Part shown: positions 21,706-58,014 of the stretch, piece after piece | Layout of the letters: each line of letters opens with the position of its first letter | How positions within the stretch are numbered: the first letter of the stretch is position 1 | Made by a program: the position numbers and the translations under genes | Notes under the pieces: generated by a model | The model's database searches: none | The model's input: the letters and a program-made list of their open reading frames with translations, nothing else | What the model was told of the DNA's origin: nothing | Assembly: GCA_029210695.1 (NCBI GenBank) | Contig: JARGFH010000017.1 | Location: 1 to 63,231, forward strand | Source of the DNA: Acidimicrobiia bacterium | GTDB taxonomy: Bacteria > Actinomycetota > Acidimicrobiia > Spongiisociales > JAHEDJ01 | DNA: 63,231 nt | Direction: 5' to 3'

Positions 21706-21755
21706 GTTTTCGCGCGGGGTTTCCACCCTATGTGGGGTGAATCCCGCGCGAAAAC
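21706..21755. repeat. 50-bp palindrome, family 1 copy B
   Basis: Same 13-bp arms and 24-nt spacer; contains the stop codon of the DUF559 gene. Confidence 0.92.
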
Positions 21756-22690
21756 ACATCGGGATGGCCAAGTTCGAGCAGGAAGCTCCGAGTCTTGGCA
21801 ACGACTTCGTGGGGCCTCTGCCAGAGTTCATCGTCCCAAATCGTGAGCACCCTCAAACCCATGCTGGAGAGTGACTGGAATCGACGATCGTCTGACTCCC
21901 GATCGAGCTTCGAGGTGTGATAGCGGCGACTCAGAACCTCGACGACGCCGCCGACCTGCTCATAGAAGAGATCAACCCGGCCGATAATTCCGCCGTCCCC
22001 AAGCACAACCTGACGGCGCGGCACCGGCAATCCAGCTTCGCTCAGCAGGGCAAGGGTCCTCGCTTCATTACCGCTCTCGGGCGGCACGAAATCGCCGAGG
22101 CGTGCTGCAATCAGCTCCCGAATCAGCCTAATGCCGTTGCGGCCCCGCGCCGCCAGTCGATCGAGTAGCGCACTAAGAACCGGCCCGTTGAGAAGGCCCA
22201 TCGCCCAGGCGTTGTCGAGCGCCCGTTCGGTCTTTGCCGGATGTACCATTCCAGCCAGATGGAACATGGTCAGGGCCGGGGACGTCACCGGAATCTGTCT
22301 CAGCCAGACCACGTGGTCTAGCGGGAAGTCCTTCTGATAATGCACGACGGCGAGGCGGCCACGACGGTCGATGCCCTGTCTTGGAACCGTGACGTGGAAT
22401 GGCTCCGAAAGTCGAAATCCGGGGATATCCCAGTAGGCAGCAGCAGAAGTGTGAGAGAGCGCCGCTCCGGGTGGGCTATCAAGCACGGCGGCCATCGCTC
22501 TCTTTTCGCCCGAATCGGGCGTTCCAACGAGCTCGAGGACCTCTGGAGAAACGGACTTCCAATCACCACGCTGTATCCGGCGTTCAAGGCGCCGATAGCT
22601 CACACCAAGGTCATGAGCCTGCTGCCTGCCGACGAGGCCGTACTGGCGTTCGGCGAGAGCTCTGAGTTCGAGGTCGGAATGCATAGCCAC
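21728..22690 (-). CDS. AbiEi-type wHTH + DUF559 (Vsr-like) endonuclease-domain protein
   Basis: LAERQYGLV.R.Q N-terminus, ALSHTSAA..W, VTSP..T, ES..E, RVDL.Y..VVEV...YH and D..R...L...G.RVL.IW motifs. Confidence 0.85.
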   Translation of the reverse strand: MAMHSDLELRALAERQYGLVGRQQAHDLGVSYRRLERRIQRGDWKSVSPEVLELVGTPDSGEKRAMAAVLDSPPGAALSHTSAAAYWDIPGFRLSEPFHVTVPRQGIDRRGRLAVVHYQKDFPLDHVVWLRQIPVTSPALTMFHLAGMVHPAKTERALDNAWAMGLLNGPVLSALLDRLAARGRNGIRLIRELIAARLGDFVPPESGNEARTLALLSEAGLPVPRRQVVLGDGGIIGRVDLFYEQVGGVVEVLSRRYHTSKLDRESDDRRFQSLSSMGLRVLTIWDDELWQRPHEVVAKTRSFLLELGHPDVFSRGIHPT

Positions 22691-23411: not shown

Positions 23412-24035
23412 ATGAGCATCGAACCTGGTCCCCTGCCACGGCGTGGCGGCCTTCTCAGCATCGTCTTCCTCGTGGCGGTTGGTGCAGCCGTCATCATTGC
23501 TGCGGTTGTCAGCACACGCGATGACCCGGCGAGTGCCGCGGCCGCAGTGCAAGGCGCCGCAAAAGAAAACGCGGAGTCGGCGGAAGAGGTGTTTCATCCG
23601 CCGGGCGGTCCGCTGGCGGGGACACTGGCAGCCGACTTCGATGTCGAGCTCCTTTCGGGTGAGACCTTCGACCTCTCCGATCACCTGGCCAATGACGGCC
23701 GCCCTATCGTCCTGAACTTCTGGGCCTCCTGGTGCCCGCCATGCCGGGCCGAGATGCCCGACTTCGACAGGGTTGCGCTGGAACGCTCCGACATCCTGAT
23801 ACTCGGCGTCGCCGTCGAAGACGACCCTGGTGCTGCCACCGCCTTCGGCAACGAGATCGGTGTCTCCTATCCCCTCGGCATCGACGTCACCGGCGTCATT
23901 GCCGGCCACTTCCCATACCTCGGGCTACCGACCACCTGGTTCATCGATGGCGACGGCATCATCATCCGCCAATGGACCGGGATGCTCACCTACGAGGACC
24001 TGATCGCCAGGATCGACGCGGACTTCTCTTCGTAG
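23412..24035 (+). CDS. TlpA/ResA-family thiol-disulfide reductase
   Basis: TM anchor, LNFWASWCPPC..EMP and GLPTT motifs. Confidence 0.92.
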   Translation: MSIEPGPLPRRGGLLSIVFLVAVGAAVIIAAVVSTRDDPASAAAAVQGAAKENAESAEEVFHPPGGPLAGTLAADFDVELLSGETFDLSDHLANDGRPIVLNFWASWCPPCRAEMPDFDRVALERSDILILGVAVEDDPGAATAFGNEIGVSYPLGIDVTGVIAGHFPYLGLPTTWFIDGDGIIIRQWTGMLTYEDLIARIDADFSS

Positions 24036-24235: not shown

Positions 24236-24394
24236 CTAGGCAGGCGGTTCGCCGATCACTCCCCCACTGTCCAGCAGGTCGCCCGCCCACTCGAAGAGAA
24301 AAACGAGTGCAGTCAGCACGGCAACCACGATCACGACCGTGATCAGCACCTTGACGACGACCGGCCCCGGCAAGTTGGCGTACAGCCGTCGCAT
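24236..24394 (-). CDS. 52-aa single-TM protein coupled to the sortase gene
   Basis: MRRLYANLPGPVVVKVL...LFEW; TGATG overlap with the sortase stop. Confidence 0.7.
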   Translation of the reverse strand: MRRLYANLPGPVVVKVLITVVIVVAVLTALVFLFEWAGDLLDSGGVIGEPPA

Positions 24395-25122
24395 CAGGAC
24401 ATCGGTTCGAGGAACTCGTCGACCTGTGCCTGCGCGTAGGGGAGATTCGGGCCGTCGATGAGTTCCGCCTGAATCACGAGTCGCTCCCGGGCCGAAAAGC
24501 GCGGGTTGCAGGTCGTCAGGGTGATCCACGCCCCGCGTTTGGGGTTCGTTACCCACACATCGGTCGGGAGAACGATCAATACCTCCCGGATCGCGAATAC
24601 GTGATCGCCCAGGGCAGTCTCCACCACGATTTCGTCGCCGGGCTCGAGGAGATCGAGGTCGTAGAACGGGGCGCCATATGTGGTGCGGTGGCCACTGATC
24701 ACCGCGTTCCCCGGCTGACCGGGCAACGGCGTCCACGGCATGTGACCGGGACCGTCTTTGAGCGTCTCCCGGCCGACACCCTCCATCAGCACATGTTCGA
24801 GTTCGATCTTGGGAATGCTGATGATCCCGAATGCCTGTCCCTCCTCAGGCATCGGCTCTTCGAAGAGGACCGGTGCGGGCGGCACAACGAACGTGCCGTG
24901 AGTCGTAGCATCGTCGTCATCAAGAACGACTGCGGGCGGGAAATCACCTTCTTCGAGGAGTTGGTCTCGCACCGAGGTGAAGCGGGCGGCGACCTCATCT
25001 GCGGCGGCCTCCTGGGCGCGACTGGCGATCAGGTTTGTGCCGACGAGTTGGTAGGCGAGGAAGGCCAGGATCAGTCCACCGGCCCAGATCATCGTCCAAC
25101 CCAGAATTCGCAGCGTCTTCAT
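24394..25122 (-). CDS. Class E sortase
   Basis: TM anchor, GPGH, GN.VISGHRTTYGAPF and TLTTCNP.FSA.ER motifs. Confidence 0.93.
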   Translation of the reverse strand: MKTLRILGWTMIWAGGLILAFLAYQLVGTNLIASRAQEAAADEVAARFTSVRDQLLEEGDFPPAVVLDDDDATTHGTFVVPPAPVLFEEPMPEEGQAFGIISIPKIELEHVLMEGVGRETLKDGPGHMPWTPLPGQPGNAVISGHRTTYGAPFYDLDLLEPGDEIVVETALGDHVFAIREVLIVLPTDVWVTNPKRGAWITLTTCNPRFSARERLVIQAELIDGPNLPYAQAQVDEFLEPMS

Positions 25123-25201
25123 TGGTCCCCAGAGACGTCGTATCGCTACAACTCTACCGCCAACACCCAACTATCCGATCTCATCGTGGTTGCGCGACCA
25201 C

Positions 25202-26151: not shown

Positions 26152-26742
26152 ATGGTCTGGTTGGCCCTCGTCCTATTCCTCGCGGCGACCATCGCGGTCA
26201 TTCGTGGTGGCAAACTGCGCAACCTGTCCGACATTCGATTGCGCTTGTGGTGGCTGCTGATACTGGGCTTCGGACTCCAGTCGATCACAGGTTTCTTCCC
26301 ACAAGACGCCACCTGGGCAAGGCCCACCGGCATCACGCTGATCCTGGTTTCATACGTCCCGTTGCTCATCATGGTGATCCTCAACAGGGATAGGCCCGGA
26401 ATGTGGTTGGCAGGACTCGGGATCCTCATGAACTTCTCAGTGATCGCGGCCAACGGCGGTATGCCGGTACTCGAAGGAGCCGCCATCGTGGCAGGCGGGT
26501 TTCCCGAGTCGGTGGACCTAACCAGCAACTACAAACACCTCGTCCTCGACGAAGGCACACGTCTGGCGTTCCTCGCCGACGTCATCCCATTGCGGTTCAT
26601 CGGCCAGGGTCAGGTCATCTCACTCGGTGATGTGTTGCTGGCCGTGGGCCTCGGCCGGTTCCTGGAGCACGAGCTGCGCCGCCCTGTGCGCTGGTTCAAA
26701 CACGGAGCGCAGGCGGAGGCCGGCTCGGCGCGTCGCGTCTAA
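26152..26742 (+). CDS. DUF5317-family membrane protein
   Basis: N..PG..L.GLG.L.N..VI.ANGGMPV, TRL.FLADVIP and VISLGDVL motifs; family recognised from memory. Confidence 0.8.
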   Translation: MVWLALVLFLAATIAVIRGGKLRNLSDIRLRLWWLLILGFGLQSITGFFPQDATWARPTGITLILVSYVPLLIMVILNRDRPGMWLAGLGILMNFSVIAANGGMPVLEGAAIVAGGFPESVDLTSNYKHLVLDEGTRLAFLADVIPLRFIGQGQVISLGDVLLAVGLGRFLEHELRRPVRWFKHGAQAEAGSARRV

Positions 26743-26815: not shown

Positions 26816-28048
26816 TTACAGGTTGGCGTCGGCGATTTCGCGGAGGGCTTCCACGACGTCGGGGTCGTAGTCATAAGCGGCACCCCGGTGCAATACCTCG
26901 AGCGCCTCGAGGTGGGAAAACCCGAGTTCCGTCGTCGCGTGGTCGTAGGCGCTGGTGGCCTTGATCACTTTGGACGCCATCGGTAACTCGAGGTCCTTGA
27001 ACTCGCCGGGGCGCCGGTAGGGATGATGCTGCTGGCGAACCAGGTGAGCGATGCGATCGAGGTAGGGCGACTCGGCGATGATCTCGGCGCCCCACCTGGC
27101 GATGTCCTCGTCGGTGAAACCCATCTTGATCACATTCGGCTCATTCAGCGTCACCCGACCGATGTCGTGCATCATTGCCGCGAACCTGATGTCCTCTACC
27201 TCGTCCGGCGAAAGGCCGAGTCGCTGCCCGACCTCCACCGCCATGGCCGACGTCCGATCGCCGTGACCGTCCGGTGACAAACCGGCGACCTCCGGGATCC
27301 GCGAGAGCGCACGGATCGTCTGCCAGTAGGTGGTCCTCGCATCCTGATACCGATGAAATGCCAGATGAGCGAACGCATACGGCACGGCTACCACGATCAC
27401 CGCAGCCCACAGGTCGATCCTGGCGTAGGCGAATCCGAACAAGGCTCCCGTCGCCAGCAGACTCAACGCCACCATCCAGTCCTTGACGGCCAGCAGCCAG
27501 AGGTAGCGGCGGCTGATGCGCCGCCGGCCGAACGTCACGAACGCCCACAAGAACATCTCGAGCATGAACCAGGTCGCCGATCCGAGCGTGAAGCCGATCA
27601 AGTCGGCGGCGTCCGAGTCGAGACCCCAGCCGCCCAGCGTCGGGGCCACATATCGGAGAACCGTCGCGTAGACGCCGGCGCCGACTGCCCTGCGCAATGC
27701 GATGGCCAAGGAAATCACCGCTTCTTCGCCACGCAGAACGGCGATCGCCCACGAAACAAGCGCTCCTCCCACGAAGACGGCGCCGCTGGCGACCAGATCG
27801 ATGGCGCCGCCAGGTGTCCGCATCACGAGCGGAACGGCCGCCGCCACTGCAAACCCAAGAGATAGCCGGTTGCCACTAGTCGCCGGAACCATGATTTGCG
27901 ACGCGCCGGCCAGTGCAGCGACGCCCACGAGGATCTCCGCCAGTTCACCGCGAACTTCAATCAGCAAGAGAGCGAAGAGGGCGGCGGCAGCCAACGCCCA
28001 CATCACGTCCATCAGCCGTGAACGCGGCGCCGGCTCAGTTCTGCCCAC
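26816..28048 (-). CDS. Membrane protein with degenerate HD-GYP domain
   Basis: Multi-TM N-terminus, GH..R and MHDIG present; no GYP loop and TSAYD instead of ADAFD. GTG start with GGAGG RBS. Confidence 0.85.
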   Translation of the reverse strand: MGRTEPAPRSRLMDVMWALAAAALFALLLIEVRGELAEILVGVAALAGASQIMVPATSGNRLSLGFAVAAAVPLVMRTPGGAIDLVASGAVFVGGALVSWAIAVLRGEEAVISLAIALRRAVGAGVYATVLRYVAPTLGGWGLDSDAADLIGFTLGSATWFMLEMFLWAFVTFGRRRISRRYLWLLAVKDWMVALSLLATGALFGFAYARIDLWAAVIVVAVPYAFAHLAFHRYQDARTTYWQTIRALSRIPEVAGLSPDGHGDRTSAMAVEVGQRLGLSPDEVEDIRFAAMMHDIGRVTLNEPNVIKMGFTDEDIARWGAEIIAESPYLDRIAHLVRQQHHPYRRPGEFKDLELPMASKVIKATSAYDHATTELGFSHLEALEVLHRGAAYDYDPDVVEALREIADANL

Positions 28049-29378
28049 GCGTCCTCCCTTCCGCCATCCGGCGCGCCTGCTCGTCGTCGGTGAAGCCGGG
28101 CGAGCCGTACCGCTCTCCGGTACGGGCGAGAGCCCGCGCCAGGGACTCGACGATGTGCGGATCGAATTGCGTCCCGGCATTGCGCCGAAGTTCGTCAAAT
28201 GCGTAATCCTGGCTGAGGGCCATCCGGTATGAACGGGTGCTGGTCATCGCATCGAAGGCGTCCGCTACCGCCAGAATCCGGGCCTCCATGGCGGGACGCT
28301 GGCCGTGTTGGTGACCACTTCCGCCGTAGCCGTTGCCGTCGAACTGCGAGTGATGACCGGAGGCGATTTCCACCATCGGCCGGAGGAACTCGACCTCGGC
28401 GAGGATGTCTTCCACCACGTGGGCGTGAGCCTGAAGATTCTCGTACTCATCCTCGGTGAGACGGCCTCGTTTGCGAATGAGATCACGCGGGACTGCCAGC
28501 TTGCCGACATCGTGGATCAGGGCGGCGACGCGAACCCGCTCGAGCCGGGAACCACGAAAGCCGAGATCCTCGCCGATCAGCTGAGCGAAGTAGGCGACCC
28601 GCTCGGTATGGCCCCTGGTATATAGGTCCTTGGCCTCGAGGGCTTTGATGAATCCCCGCAGCGTCGCCTCATGGGCCTCCCGGAGTTCTCCGTAGGAGGC
28701 GAAGGTGTAGTGGCCGGCAACGAAGACCACGAGAATCAGAGGCAACACCGCAAATCCGACGGCGCTGTAGACGATGCCGAGGAATCCGCCGAGCACACCC
28801 ATCACGAGGTATGACACGAGAATCATCGCCATCCCCGACCACGGCCGAATGTCGCGCCGCCCAAAGGCAAGGCGCACAATCGTCCGAACCTGGCCGTAGT
28901 TCAACACTGCGTAGACAATGGCCGCCACAGATGCGGCACCTACCACCCGGGCGATATTCCCGGCTGCGCCCGGGTCGATGCCAGACGGGATCAGCAGGTC
29001 GAGCGCAAGGCCGGCGGATCCTGCGCTGACCACCAGCTGTCCGAAGTTCACGGCTGGTTGGAACCAGCGACGCTCCCGGATGTCGCGAGGCACCAGGGGG
29101 CCGAGCGCGGCGATGGTGGCGATGCCCAACGCGGCACTGCTGCCCTCGAGTGCAAAAATCGTGCCGCCGGTGAGTGCCACCATGATGGTCGAACTCGCCA
29201 TTAGCTGATCGTTTATCTCGACGGCCCTCCATTCGAGATACACGAATGGGACGGCGAACGCCGCCCAGAGTGCGACATTGGGGAATGACTGCGTGAGGAT
29301 CAGCGCCGTGAGCACGATCACACCAATCGCCACATAGGCGACGGCCAGTCGGATTCGTACAAGCCTCTGGGTACTCAC
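28035..29378 (-). CDS. Membrane HD-GYP phosphodiesterase
   Basis: Multi-TM N-terminus, EAKD.YT.GH.ERV, HDVGK, HH..FDG.GYG and RILAVADAFDAMTS.R.YR motifs. Confidence 0.9.
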   Translation of the reverse strand: MSTQRLVRIRLAVAYVAIGVIVLTALILTQSFPNVALWAAFAVPFVYLEWRAVEINDQLMASSTIMVALTGGTIFALEGSSAALGIATIAALGPLVPRDIRERRWFQPAVNFGQLVVSAGSAGLALDLLIPSGIDPGAAGNIARVVGAASVAAIVYAVLNYGQVRTIVRLAFGRRDIRPWSGMAMILVSYLVMGVLGGFLGIVYSAVGFAVLPLILVVFVAGHYTFASYGELREAHEATLRGFIKALEAKDLYTRGHTERVAYFAQLIGEDLGFRGSRLERVRVAALIHDVGKLAVPRDLIRKRGRLTEDEYENLQAHAHVVEDILAEVEFLRPMVEIASGHHSQFDGNGYGGSGHQHGQRPAMEARILAVADAFDAMTSTRSYRMALSQDYAFDELRRNAGTQFDPHIVESLARALARTGERYGSPGFTDDEQARRMAEGRTRGQN

Positions 29379-29414
29379 GTCTCGCCCTTTTTGGAAAGAT
29401 GCCCGGACGGGCGC

Positions 29415-29504
29415 TCAGCCAACCTTGAATGATGCAGCACCGGCGACGATTAACGCCGACAAGCTGCTTGCAATCGCAATGAAACGGGCCACTTTGGCCT
29501 TCAT
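29415..29504 (-). CDS. Unannotated 29-aa signal-peptide-like small protein MKAKVARFIAIASSLSALIVAGAASFKVG
   Basis: ATG with AGGTGA RBS upstream. Basic n-region, hydrophobic core, short polar/aromatic tail. Ends 36 nt before the HD-GYP start on the same strand. Confidence 0.75.
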   Translation of the reverse strand: MKAKVARFIAIASSLSALIVAGAASFKVG

Positions 29505-29815
29505 AAGGAGCTATCACCTAAAGGGATGTCTCTTCATAGTCGCTAGTGACCATGACGAATGTTCCGCTTCGCTGTGGGATTAGTTCCTGGCTGATCGCTC
29601 TATCCGGGCATCCTCCTCCCACCGGCATCTGCCGGTTGGACCTCCAAACTTCAATTCCAGAGGCTCCCAAGTTGCCCAGCCCCGCTCTCGGCGAGTCGAG
29701 CCAGCACGCCCGCTCCGCCATTCGTCGTCGAAGACGACTGGCCGGAGCCTACCAGTGCATTGGTTCGCATCTCAATTACTTCGTCGTGCCGGACGGCAAC
29801 GCTACATTGACGGTG

Positions 29816-30433
29816 ATGCGCTATCAGGAACTCGAAGAGACCCTCTGCCGTCTTCCGACCGTTGATGCCGCCAGAGTGGTCGGGACCAATGGAACCATCA
29901 GCGAGATCCACATCCTGGGCACCCCCGGGAAGGCTCCCAAGCAGGTAGTGCGCGATGTCCAGTCCCTGGCAATGGCCCAATTCGGGCTGACCGTCGACCG
30001 CCGGGTCATCTCGGTGGTGCAGATCGAGAACGAGGAGATTGGCCGGAGCGACAGGCCGGCGATCGTCGACATCCTGGAGGAACCGGTCGGATCCCGGCTG
30101 ACGGTGACCGTCACGCTGGCCTGGCAGAACGAGATGATCACCGGGGTAGCGAGTGGCCCCAGTGCCGCGACAACTCGCCTCCGCTCAGTTGGCGAAGCAA
30201 CGGTGGCCGCCCTCGAACACGGCATCGGGGATGACACGGCACTGGCGCTTGCCGCCCTAGAAACGCCGACGATTGGATCCCGCCAGGTGGCCGTTGCACA
30301 GATCGTGATCGTGTCCGGCGGCGAGGAACGGCTCGTCGTCGGATCCGCCCTGGTCGGCCCGAACGAGGCACAGGCCGCAGTGCGCGCCGTTCTCGATGCC
30401 GTCAACCGGCTCGTGCCGGGCTTCAGGCGTTAG
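29816..30433 (+). CDS. Conserved hypothetical protein
   Basis: EIHIL....PKQVVRDVQS......VDRRVISVVQ motif; C-terminal A.VRAVLDAVNR resembles a LeuA-regulatory-like domain. Confidence 0.75.
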   Translation: MRYQELEETLCRLPTVDAARVVGTNGTISEIHILGTPGKAPKQVVRDVQSLAMAQFGLTVDRRVISVVQIENEEIGRSDRPAIVDILEEPVGSRLTVTVTLAWQNEMITGVASGPSAATTRLRSVGEATVAALEHGIGDDTALALAALETPTIGSRQVAVAQIVIVSGGEERLVVGSALVGPNEAQAAVRAVLDAVNRLVPGFRR

Positions 30434-55526: not shown

Positions 55527-56521
55527 CGCCGGTCAACATCGTCGATGTAGCCGCCTGGTTGCCGGAACGGTGGATGACGGCTGCCGAAATCGGAGAACGC
55601 TCGGGAATCGACGAGCAGATCATCGTCGAGCGTTTCGGACTCGACGGCAAACATATCGCCGGCCCGGAAGATCACAACTCCGATATGAGCGCCCGGGCGG
55701 GATTGCTGGCACTGGCGAGAGCCGGCATTGCTCCGGAAGAGGTCGACGTCGTCGCCTACTTCGGGTCGATGTGGCGTGACTACGAAGTCTGGTCGGTCAG
55801 CCCGAAGATCATGCACCTGGTCGGAGCAACGAACGCTTGGGCGTTCGAAATGGCGAACGTGTCGTGTGGTGCTCCCGTTGCGTTGAAGGTGGCCGCCGAT
55901 TTCCTACGGGGCGCCGAAGATGTTGACACGATGCTGCTGGTGGGAGCCAGTCGCGAGTCTCACCTCCTGGATTACACAAACCAGCGCTCGAGGTTCATGT
56001 TCAACTTTGGCGACGGCGGTGCCGCGGCGGTGCTGTCGAAATCACGACCGGGCCATCCGATCATCTCCTCGGCGATCATCACCGACGGGCAGTTCGCCGA
56101 CGACGTCGCGGTCTATGCCGGAGGCAGCAAACACCCGGCCACCCACGCGACGATCGACGCCGGCATGCACTACCTCGACGTCGGGGACCCGGTCTCGATG
56201 AAGGAGCGCCTCGACCCGGTCTCCGGACCGAACTTCATCAAGGTCGCCGGGCAGGCACTCGAGCGAGCGGGCATCACTTCCGGAGATCTTGCGCTGATGG
56301 TGCCCTTGCACTTCAAGCGCTCGTTTCTCGACTGGGTGCTGGAGGAACTCGACATACCGGAGGACAAGACGGTGTATCTCAGAACAACCGGACACATGTC
56401 CGGCATCGATCCGATCGTCGGATTGAACGAGCGGCGGGAGCATCTGCAGCCCGGTGACTATGTTCTCTTGATCTCGGCGGGAACCGGATATACGTGGGCG
56501 GCGAACGTGGTGAGGTGGTAG
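55523..56521 (+). CDS. FabH/3-oxoacyl-ACP synthase III-like condensing enzyme
   Basis: Catalytic C (NVSC), FGDG, H (PLHF), GH, and AGTGYTWAA motifs; GTGA overlap. Confidence 0.88.
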   Translation: MTPVNIVDVAAWLPERWMTAAEIGERSGIDEQIIVERFGLDGKHIAGPEDHNSDMSARAGLLALARAGIAPEEVDVVAYFGSMWRDYEVWSVSPKIMHLVGATNAWAFEMANVSCGAPVALKVAADFLRGAEDVDTMLLVGASRESHLLDYTNQRSRFMFNFGDGGAAAVLSKSRPGHPIISSAIITDGQFADDVAVYAGGSKHPATHATIDAGMHYLDVGDPVSMKERLDPVSGPNFIKVAGQALERAGITSGDLALMVPLHFKRSFLDWVLEELDIPEDKTVYLRTTGHMSGIDPIVGLNERREHLQPGDYVLLISAGTGYTWAANVVRW

Positions 56522-56523
56522 CG

Positions 56524-58014
56524 ATGGCAGTACCGGCATACGATTGGATCGGCTTCCATGCCGGCATCCGCCCACAGGCGGTAGCGCTGATCGACGACTA
56601 CACCGGCAAGCGCCACACCTTCGCACAACTCGACGATCGAGTGAGGAGCATGGCGGCATGGTTGGCCGGGAAGGGCGTCGGCGAGGGCGACCGGGTGGCG
56701 TTCCTCTCCGGCAACACGATCGACATCTTCGAAGTGCTGTTCGCCTGTGCCCATTTGAAGGCGATCATCGTCCCGCTCAACTGGCGGCTGGCAGTGCCCG
56801 AGTTGCAGTTCATCATCGGTGACTGCCGCCCTCAGCTTCTCATCTACGAGGACCAATTCCAGGAGGCAGTCGATCAACTCGTGGTGCCAACACACCTGCG
56901 ACTGGGCGACGACTACGAGGCGGCGCTCGCCGGCGCCGACCCCGCCACCGCTCCCCCGGTGACGGCGACCCACGACGATCCGCTGGCGATCATGTACACA
57001 TCCGGGACGACCGGCCACCCCAAGGGCGCCTTGATCACCCACCGGATGTTCTTCTACAACGCCATCAACATCGGCGACGCCGTCGGCCTCACCTACAAGT
57101 CCACGAATCTCAACGTGTTGCCAACCTTCCATACAGGAGGCTTGAACCTCTACACGACACCGTGCTTACGACTGGGCGGTTCGTCGGTCAACCTCCGCGA
57201 GTTCGACCCCGAGCGGTTGCTGCACTGGCTGACGTCCGGCGAGATCACCCACTTCTTCGGCGTTCCGGCCGTGTATCAGTTCCTGGCGGAGTACGAAGGT
57301 TGGGAAACGGCCGATCTGTCCAAGGTGGAGTCCTGGGCGTGCGGTGGCTCGGCGATGCCGGTGACCTTGTTGGAGCGCTATGCGGCGCGCGGCATCCACA
57401 TCCGGCAGGGCATGGGGCTGACGGAAACCAGCCCGACGCTGTTCTTGACCGACGAAGAACATGCACTATCCAAGGCCGGATCGGTTGGCAAGCCGGTCTT
57501 GCACACCGCGATCCGCGTGGTCGACGAGGAGGGCACGGACGTTCCGACCGGAGACATCGGCGAACTCTGGGCAAAGGGGCCGAACGTGACGCCCGGCTAC
57601 TGGGAAAGGCCTGAGGCAAACCGTGAGTCGTTCACAGACGGCTGGCTGCACACCGGCGACGCGGCCAGGATCGACGAGGACGGCTACGTCTACATCGTCG
57701 ATCGGTGGAAGGACATGTACATCTCGGGCGGCGAGAATGTGTACCCAGCCGAAGTCGAGCAAACCCTGTTCCGGCACGACAACGTCCTGGACGTTGCAGT
57801 GATAGGTGTGCAGGACGAGCGCTGGGGCGAGTCCGGTTTGGCGGTGGTCGTGCCCCGCAACCCGGATGCATTCGATCCCGCAGACATCATCCACTTCTGC
57901 GACGACAAACTGGCCCGCTACAAGATCCCGAAGCGGGCAGTGGCGGTGGACGAGTTGCCCCGCAATGCAGCCGGAAAGGTCTTGAAGCGCCAACTCCGCC
58001 AAGAGCTGGGGTAG
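56524..58014 (+). CDS. Long-chain fatty-acid--CoA ligase
   Basis: YTSGTTGHPKG, GLTE, GWLHTGD, SGGENVYP and AGKVLK motifs. Confidence 0.92.
   Translation: MAVPAYDWIGFHAGIRPQAVALIDDYTGKRHTFAQLDDRVRSMAAWLAGKGVGEGDRVAFLSGNTIDIFEVLFACAHLKAIIVPLNWRLAVPELQFIIGDCRPQLLIYEDQFQEAVDQLVVPTHLRLGDDYEAALAGADPATAPPVTATHDDPLAIMYTSGTTGHPKGALITHRMFFYNAINIGDAVGLTYKSTNLNVLPTFHTGGLNLYTTPCLRLGGSSVNLREFDPERLLHWLTSGEITHFFGVPAVYQFLAEYEGWETADLSKVESWACGGSAMPVTLLERYAARGIHIRQGMGLTETSPTLFLTDEEHALSKAGSVGKPVLHTAIRVVDEEGTDVPTGDIGELWAKGPNVTPGYWERPEANRESFTDGWLHTGDAARIDEDGYVYIVDRWKDMYISGGENVYPAEVEQTLFRHDNVLDVAVIGVQDERWGESGLAVVVPRNPDAFDPADIIHFCDDKLARYKIPKRAVAVDELPRNAAGKVLKRQLRQELG

Follow-up and report, generated by a model that had tools for sequence, protein, structure and literature searches.

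Comparative sequence evidence for a conserved 29-codon mini-gene in the leader RNA of membrane HD-GYP operons of uncultured Acidimicrobiia

Small membrane proteins such as MgrB and SafA modulate a membrane sensor, PhoQ, and in phage MS2 translation of the upstream coat ORF opens a long-distance helix, which couples it to translation of the replicase. Passages of PMC8450073 and 10.1101/604074 describe TnaC (tnaCAB) and SpeFL (speFL-speF) as termination-arrest leader peptides, encoded by upstream ORFs (uORFs) of 24 and 34 codons, respectively. In Streptomyces venezuelae, the hdgA-hdgB operon encodes a 6TM-HD-GYP protein followed by a 6TM-degenerate HD-GYP protein, as set out in portions of PMC6205966, and an excerpt of 10.1101/2021.11.05.467447 names HdgA as the only characterised MASE9 protein. 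The same portions of these two sources give no known input signal for membrane HD-GYP enzymes of the HdgA/MASE9 type, and no phenotype in Streptomyces. In the literature that we searched, nothing in print dealt with a mini-gene and RNA leader in front of membrane HD-GYP genes.

We analyzed a window of 63,231 nucleotides from an Acidimicrobiia bacterium, this being the whole stretch of DNA under study. A first-pass annotation had proposed a short ORF, and it is present as described, running on the minus strand from ATG to TGA (29504..29415) and encoding the peptide MKAKVARFIAIASSLSALIVAGAASFKVG. The ribosome-binding site that had been claimed for it is there as well (AGGTGAT, 29519-29513), and its stop codon is followed, after 36 nt, by the start of a membrane HD-GYP gene (GTG 29378). 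Judged by the comparisons reported below, this mini-gene is a real gene, conserved across an order of uncultured Acidimicrobiia. It lies among the following features.

29415..29504, minus strand: 29-codon uORF (mini-gene, putative leader peptide), with ATG at 29504-29502 and stop TGA at 29417-29415
29513..29519, minus strand: SD-like AGGTGAT, 8 nt 5' of the mini-gene ATG
28035..29378, minus strand: membrane HD-GYP protein (HdgA-like), 447 aa, with a polytopic, weakly MASE9-like N-terminal domain and an HD_5 domain
26816..28198, minus strand: second membrane HD protein, without the GYP motif (HdgB-like)
26152..26742, plus strand: DUF5317 membrane protein gene, convergent on the HD operon
29816..30433, plus strand: divergent accessory gene, 205 aa, of an unnamed family with a weak LeuA_dimer likeness

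A membrane HD-GYP gene followed by a gene for a membrane paralogue without GYP is also the two-gene layout of hdgA-hdgB, but the portions of PMC6205966 that describe the Streptomyces operon mention no uORF or leader. The HdgA-like protein matches HD_5 (PF13487, E 1.6e-33), and its motif reads HHSQFDGNGYG, with GYG in place of GYP. Unlike HdgA, it matches MASE9 (PF20972) only below the Pfam cut-off (E 0.0022, 18.4 bits against 24.3 bits), and in the genomes sampled its membrane domain was not found outside the order: 284 of 401 genomes sampled within the order have it, and among 301 genomes sampled across the phylum only the 7 that belong to the order do. The true start of the HdgB-like protein probably lies downstream of that of the maximal ORF. 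With TnaC and SpeFL, as the cited passages describe them, the mini-gene shares a short length (29 codons), a position directly upstream of the genes that would be regulated, and conserved residues beside the stop. It differs in having no sequence homology to them, the 29-aa peptide giving no Pfam or NCBIfam match at E ≤ 1, in using three stop codons, and in encoding a hydrophobic peptide.

The two flanking genes belong to the cassette in most relatives. DUF5317 occurs in 33 of 41 genomes, is adjacent to the operon where the contig permits, and is syntenic in most families. Of 33 relatives that match the accessory gene, 32 have it adjoining the leader (our own reading of the contigs). Eight of 19 family members match LeuA_dimer weakly, short of the cut-off (best E 1.7e-4), look-alikes of the accessory protein form clusters of 'hypothetical proteins' in several phyla, and a PDB profile search with the 205-aa protein gave no hits. 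Paralogues of 125 aa occur elsewhere in the genomes. The accessory protein may act as a regulator that recognizes the leader. A few kilobases downstream are genes for a sortase (24394-25170) and an AbiEi-like protein (21728-22690), both on the minus strand, and we saw nothing that links them to the cassette.

Conservation upstream of orthologous HD-GYP genes was what the first-pass annotation had staked its ORF on, and we find the ORF kept there and evolving as coding sequence. We gathered 109 regions upstream of HD-GYP orthologues, all from one order of Acidimicrobiia that is known mostly from metagenome bins, although several of the genomes sampled consist of one contig each and may come from isolates. 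The filter required AGCGRAGCG and, 100-190 nt later, an ORF ending [KRSTQ][VILM][GDSNA]-stop; 98 of the 109 loci pass it directly upstream of a membrane HD-GYP orthologue, one of them (L075) probably being a false pick. A start codon stands exactly 29 codons before the stop in 77 of the 98 loci. Other lengths are rare (28 codons in 7 loci, 27 in 2, 26 in 2, and 25 in 1), and 9 loci have no start codon 25-29 codons before the stop. The start codons are ATG (40), GTG (27), TTG (17), and CTG (5), each behind an SD-like purine run, which in the other loci lies 6-10 nt upstream. The 11 loci that fail the filter comprise 2 cut by contig ends, 1 that is frameshifted, 1 without a stop, and 7 that by our own reading are intact 28-29-codon ORFs in which the anchor varies or the final residue is T or N.

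In five of the loci, from families f3 and f11 (L008, L012, L015, L017, and L128), CTG is the only possible start at the 29-codon position and stands behind a good SD, which suggests CTG initiation in these cases. Two copies, L099 (G256) and L078 (G373), are aberrant: in one the stop has become CAA and the frame runs on toward the HD-GYP gene, and the other is frameshifted before the last codons.

A search of 41 relatives with the 29-aa peptide gave matches directly upstream of the HD-GYP orthologue and on the same strand, as in G001 (mini-gene 56500-56586, HD-GYP at 56629) and G017 (mini-gene 23685-23599, HD-GYP at 23499). The window's own genome holds a single match, so the mini-gene is single-copy there. 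Three genomes carry two copies of mini-gene and leader, each beside an HD-GYP paralogue (G021, contigs C169 and C220; G022, C2 and C26; G011, C52 and C91). Family f5 is represented by rows from G010 and G021, both flagged as unpublished, which are included in the alignments and counts; no conclusion rests on them. Of 10 exact peptide variants queried, five already have entries in public protein databases, each a 29-aa protein that is unnamed or called 'hypothetical'.

The ORF is under coding selection. Over 218 pairs with less than 30% nucleotide divergence, pN/pS is 0.25 in frame versus 1.23 and 2.56 in the shifted frames; because the sampled genomes are related, neither pairs nor loci are independent, and these values, like the locus statistics, overstate independence. 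The window and L003 differ at 10 positions in the ORF, all 10 of them synonymous. Along the peptide, the ratio is 0.39 at residues 2-7, 0.21 at residues 8-20, and 0.41 at residues 25-29, and it falls to 0.055 in the A-G-x-A block (21-24), the most constrained part. In close relatives, three metatranscriptome libraries gave contigs across the ORF; their 8 differences within it are all synonymous by our own codon reading. As contigs, they cannot prove transcription or translation. Run X21 contributed no contigs, and the stretches that X11 and X13 leave uncovered carry no information. In one RNA run (X14), a contig covering 29217-29823 ends at 29823 and another (29817-29900) starts at 29817. These ends fall at the start of the divergent gene, just upstream of the putative promoter region, and are weak evidence.

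The layout of the peptide is conserved too. In an alignment of 40 peptides, a basic N-terminus is followed by about 13 hydrophobic residues and then A-G-[A/S]-A. By inspection this agrees with a Sec-type, signal peptidase I layout, with K/R at positions 2, 4, and 7 and small residues at −3 and −1. For most families, the sequence predicts a single-helix hydrophobic peptide with a basic N-terminus, and its whole length is under purifying selection. At position −3 from the C-terminus, K or R occurs in 89 of 97 loci, a count conditioned on the regular expression that selected the ORFs. The codons used there are AAG, AAA, AGA, AGG, and CGN; the Gly is written with all four GGN codons, and all three stop codons are in use.

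The mini-gene does not stand alone. It is embedded in a conserved leader of about 360 nt, a length that follows from the position of a −10-like hexamer (TAGGCT at 29751-29746 in the window; TAGATT, TACATT, or TAACTT in relatives). From 5' to 3', the leader holds P0, P1, strand A, the anchor, P2, the SD, the ORF, and strand A'. Its elements in the window, apart from the SD and ORF given above, are these.

29379..29745, minus strand: whole 5' leader of the operon, its 5' end placed only from the conserved −10-like hexamer, with a putative transcription start near 29740
29641..29663, minus strand: hairpin P0, pairing by eye and in the MFE fold, with the position of a conserved TTGACA-like motif in its loop
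29617..29640, minus strand: hairpin P1, pairing by eye and in the MFE fold, its stem sequence varying between families with the pairing kept
29589..29616, minus strand: purine-rich 5' strand A of the long helix (GGAGGATGCCCGGA...)
29564..29573, minus strand: anchor motif AGCGRAGCGG, in invariant columns of alignments A1 and A4
29534..29556, minus strand: hairpin P2, between anchor and SD, from covariation and the MFE fold
29393..29420, minus strand: 3' strand A' of the long helix, from the Gly29 and stop codons to 22 nt past the stop, GCCCG/CGGGC included

The anchor reads AGCGAAGCGG in the window (29573-29564), and AGCGRAGCGG is matched in 101 of the 109 loci. Downstream of the stop, the first-pass annotation had noted a small GCCCG/CGGGC hairpin. 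The letters are present (29412-29408 and 29405-29401), but with the two arms only 2 nt apart a full local hairpin is impossible; these bases instead form part of the 3' strand of a long-range helix with 29589-29616. In this helix, GATGCCCGGA of strand A pairs with TCCGGGCATC of strand A', and the pairing runs on through the stop and Gly codon.

The A:A' helix is about 25 bp long and covaries. Across 91 non-redundant loci, cognate A/A' duplexes average −50.2 kcal/mol versus −38.4 (sd 6.8) for partners from other families, and in 56 of the 91 the cognate pair is better than all 15 sampled non-cognates. The predicted duplexes include the Gly codon in 62-70 of the 91 loci, the first base of the stop in 61, and the K/R codon in 20-23; the types of base pair covary, the third Gly base included. 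For the window's 381-nt leader, the MFE fold contains P0, P1, P2, and the long helix (z = −3.86). Hairpin P2 is paired in 67% of cells versus 48% in shuffles (model-fitted alignment, 62 loci), with a covariation score of 0.275 versus 0.114 when shuffled (reached by 0 of 500) and 0.03-0.07 for slid partners; on a MAFFT alignment the score is 0.31 versus 0.16. RNAalifold returned no structure on MAFFT alignments A1 and A5 because the stems are misaligned there, and duplex tests and a hand-given structure were used in its place.

No described RNA or protein family matches the leader or the mini-gene. An Rfam cmscan of 28900-30300 on both strands gave no match at E ≤ 1, c-di-GMP-I and c-di-GMP-II riboswitches included. 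Searched with R1, a model built on the anchor-P2-SD segment, the window's own genome yields a single copy, and all 18 R1 hits with E < 0.001 in 41 genomes fall on the HD-GYP leader; weaker hits away from the cassette (E 0.001-0.01) were taken as chance.

Several other signals were considered and set aside. The TTGACA-like motif (TTGAAG in the window, 29649-29654, minus strand) was rejected as a −35 box: no −10 follows it, it sits inside covarying RNA, and the −10-like hexamer is about 100 nt farther upstream. For a terminator there was one weak hit inside the ORF, no more than shuffles yield. A second long-range pairing, of the 5' region (GCCTC or the TTGACA motif) with the HD-GYP start, was inconsistent across families and showed no covariation in f1. 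Part of f4 has ACATGTC, complementary to the TTGACA-like motif, just before the HD-GYP start codon, and f6 has an anti-SD/SD match; in the loci examined we found no consistent sequestration of the HD-GYP ribosome-binding site. In most families strand A is SD-like, with GGAGG runs, and strand A' is C-rich and anti-SD-like. In part of f4, GGTGAGC is common to strand A and the mini-gene SD, so A' could pair with either.

Some lineages lack the hydrophobic segment. In f9 it is absent from all 13 loci with the anchor, and all 13 keep [A/G]TG-x-W-[K/R]-[I/V]-G-stop at the same place, one of them with an extra codon. The R is written CGT, CGG, or AGG and the K AAG, varied codons that point to conservation at the level of the peptide. 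Residues upstream of this terminal motif differ through frameshifts. In four f9 loci, the stop codon of a first uORF overlaps the start codon of the six-codon ORF (ATGA in L028, L030, and L168; GTGA in L165). This first uORF reads MW.TVG..., and the six-codon ORF reads M-x-W-[K/R]-[I/V]-G; in L131 a single frame joins the two. Subsets of f2, f4, and f10 have non-hydrophobic forms that still end [K/R]-[V/I]-[G/D]-stop. From the f9, f2, f4, and f10 forms together, we infer that translation up to this stop, with a basic residue at −3, is what is kept everywhere. For the V/I and Gly, RNA and peptide constraints are inseparable since the helix overlaps both codons.

Our leaning, only slightly firmer than even, is that the mini-gene acts chiefly in cis, as a leader peptide that controls the hdgA/hdgB-like operon. 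The ORF is under coding selection with its length and stop position fixed, the A:A' helix and P2 covary, and the ending [aromatic/aliphatic]-[K/R]-[V/I]-G-stop survives even in lineages whose peptide has otherwise decayed. The mini-gene would be the translated first cistron of a cassette made up of the divergent 205-aa gene, the structured leader with the mini-gene, the HdgA-like gene, the gene for the HdgB-like degenerate HD-GYP protein, and the convergent DUF5317 gene. The leader would fold into P0, P1, P2, and the long helix (about 25 bp), in which the segment 5' of AGCGRAGCGG pairs with the one starting at the mini-gene's last codon and stop. A ribosome completing the ORF would have to melt the inner half of this A:A' helix, so the frequency and duration of termination there would set the conformation of the leader and with it expression of the HD-GYP genes 36 nt downstream. 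Translation may turn the operon on or off, and may act at the level of translation initiation, Rho access, or RNA processing.

A termination event likewise decides the fate of the downstream RNA for TnaC and SpeFL in the passages describing them; unlike the rut site given there, the RNA partner of the mini-gene is a long-range helix, and stalling and a ligand are putative here. In MS2 the helix is opened by upstream translation, but the helix proposed here encloses the ORF and ends at its stop, and an effect on the downstream ribosome-binding site is putative. Simple termination-reinitiation is unlikely to be general since the spacer from the mini-gene stop to the HD-GYP start varies widely among loci, from about 30 to about 100 nt by eye. 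The C-terminal motif may in part reflect a constraint on the RNA because the V/I and Gly codons lie partly inside the helix.

Some of the evidence fits a membrane protein acting in trans equally well: purifying selection over the whole peptide, small residues on one face of the helix, and a weak complex prediction. In addition to its proposed cis role, the peptide in most families probably persists as a small membrane protein of the cassette, which would be a second function. The main rival reading, somewhat unlikely in our view, goes further and makes the function purely trans-acting. The single helix would bind the membrane domain of the HdgA-like or HdgB-like protein, or DUF5317, as MgrB does PhoQ, and the RNA helix would matter solely for mRNA stability, processing, or co-expression. 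Like MgrB and SafA, the mini-gene codes for a peptide of about 30 aa with a single helix, next to a polytopic membrane signalling enzyme; interaction of the peptide with that enzyme is weakly predicted. The mini-gene has no homology to them, lies inside the enzyme's own leader RNA, and encodes a hydrophobic helix that some lineages dispense with.

The purifying selection is strongest at AGxA, and by our own reading of the alignment the small residues recur on one helix face. The predicted complex of the peptide with the HD-GYP membrane domain is weak, at 0.38 versus 0.01 for the best of 3 controls, with a chain of fewer than 30 residues that lies outside the calibration of the method. In calibration, 116 of 157 solved complexes passed the method's mark, as did 2 of 215 mismatched pairs; passes at 0.60 or under comprised only 18 of the 157 solved complexes and both of the mismatches. 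With our own alignments, the runs agree in at least 71% of contacts, and the partner's pLDDT is at least 60. In passages of 10.1101/2021.11.05.467447, the MASE9 authors propose ligand binding within the membrane, which counts in favour of this alternative.

DUF5317 was not found in any of the 8 f9 genomes searched, the family without the hydrophobic uORF segment, and f9 retains the HdgB-like gene. This co-loss, however, is a single lineage event, and four genomes (G007, G009, G020, and G039) have DUF5317 but non-hydrophobic peptides. A purely trans-acting peptide also leaves unexplained why non-hydrophobic or six-codon ORFs are retained with the same stop, and why that stop sits at the base of the helix.

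A more elaborate form of the leader peptide, which we consider doubtful, is a ligand-sensing composite riboregulator. The 29-residue nascent peptide would fill the tunnel and stall the terminating ribosome at the foot of the helix, inducing the phosphodiesterase operon in response to a ligand such as c-di-GMP or a breakdown product. In f9 the arrest peptide would be reduced to the six codons M-x-W-[K/R]-[I/V]-G. The peptide may have two partners in this, the invariant AGCGRAGCGG element and the divergent LeuA-regulatory-domain-like protein. Such a device would amount to TnaC-style substrate induction applied to a second messenger.

Precursors of the enterococcal inhibitor peptides (iCF10, iAD1) and of SHP are signal-like chains of 21-23 aa in which the signal is the C-terminal 7-8 residues. 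The mini-gene product resembles them, and the first-pass annotation had read it in a similar way, as a precursor that is almost all signal sequence and releases about AASFKVG or SFKVG, with VAG|A mimicking a lipobox. Generalized across the families, this would be a precursor cut after A-G-[A/S]-A, its secreted product of 5-7 residues then acting as a signal for the HD-GYP sensor. We judge this very unlikely. The signal-peptide-like layout did prove to be conserved, with n-, h-, and c-regions and small residues at −3 and −1 before A24 or S25, and the K/R at −3 from the C-terminus recurs as counted above, the count being filter-conditioned. However, none of the 40 aligned peptides has a Cys, and the position in question is an invariant Ala; the site is therefore not a lipobox, and lipoprotein processing does not apply. 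Cleavage and export found no support. Positions 25 and 26, which would belong to the mature peptide, are among the most variable, and the cassette showed no gene for a peptidase, exporter, or importer. A precursor of this kind does not predict the f9, f2, f4, and f10 forms without the hydrophobic part: f9 and the other decayed forms could not be exported, yet they keep the C-terminus.

Least of all do we expect a toxin like those of type I, a small hydrophobic peptide with its mRNA silenced by the long-range pairing. The size and hydrophobic character of the peptide and the extensive structure of its mRNA, long-range helix included, recall the hok, tisB, and aapA-type loci. The mini-gene, however, is single-copy (1 match in its own genome), keeps strict vertical synteny with the HD-GYP operon in the order-wide sample, has its SD left uncovered by the long helix, lies near no evident antisense RNA gene, and persists in non-hydrophobic versions.

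With these results, the operon of an order-wide family of HD-GYP enzymes gains a first gene that had escaped annotation, together with a large RNA leader that is conserved. The mini-gene and its leader offer handles on when the enzyme is made and what controls its production. If the peptide does sense a ligand in the ribosome, it would represent a new class of arrest peptide.
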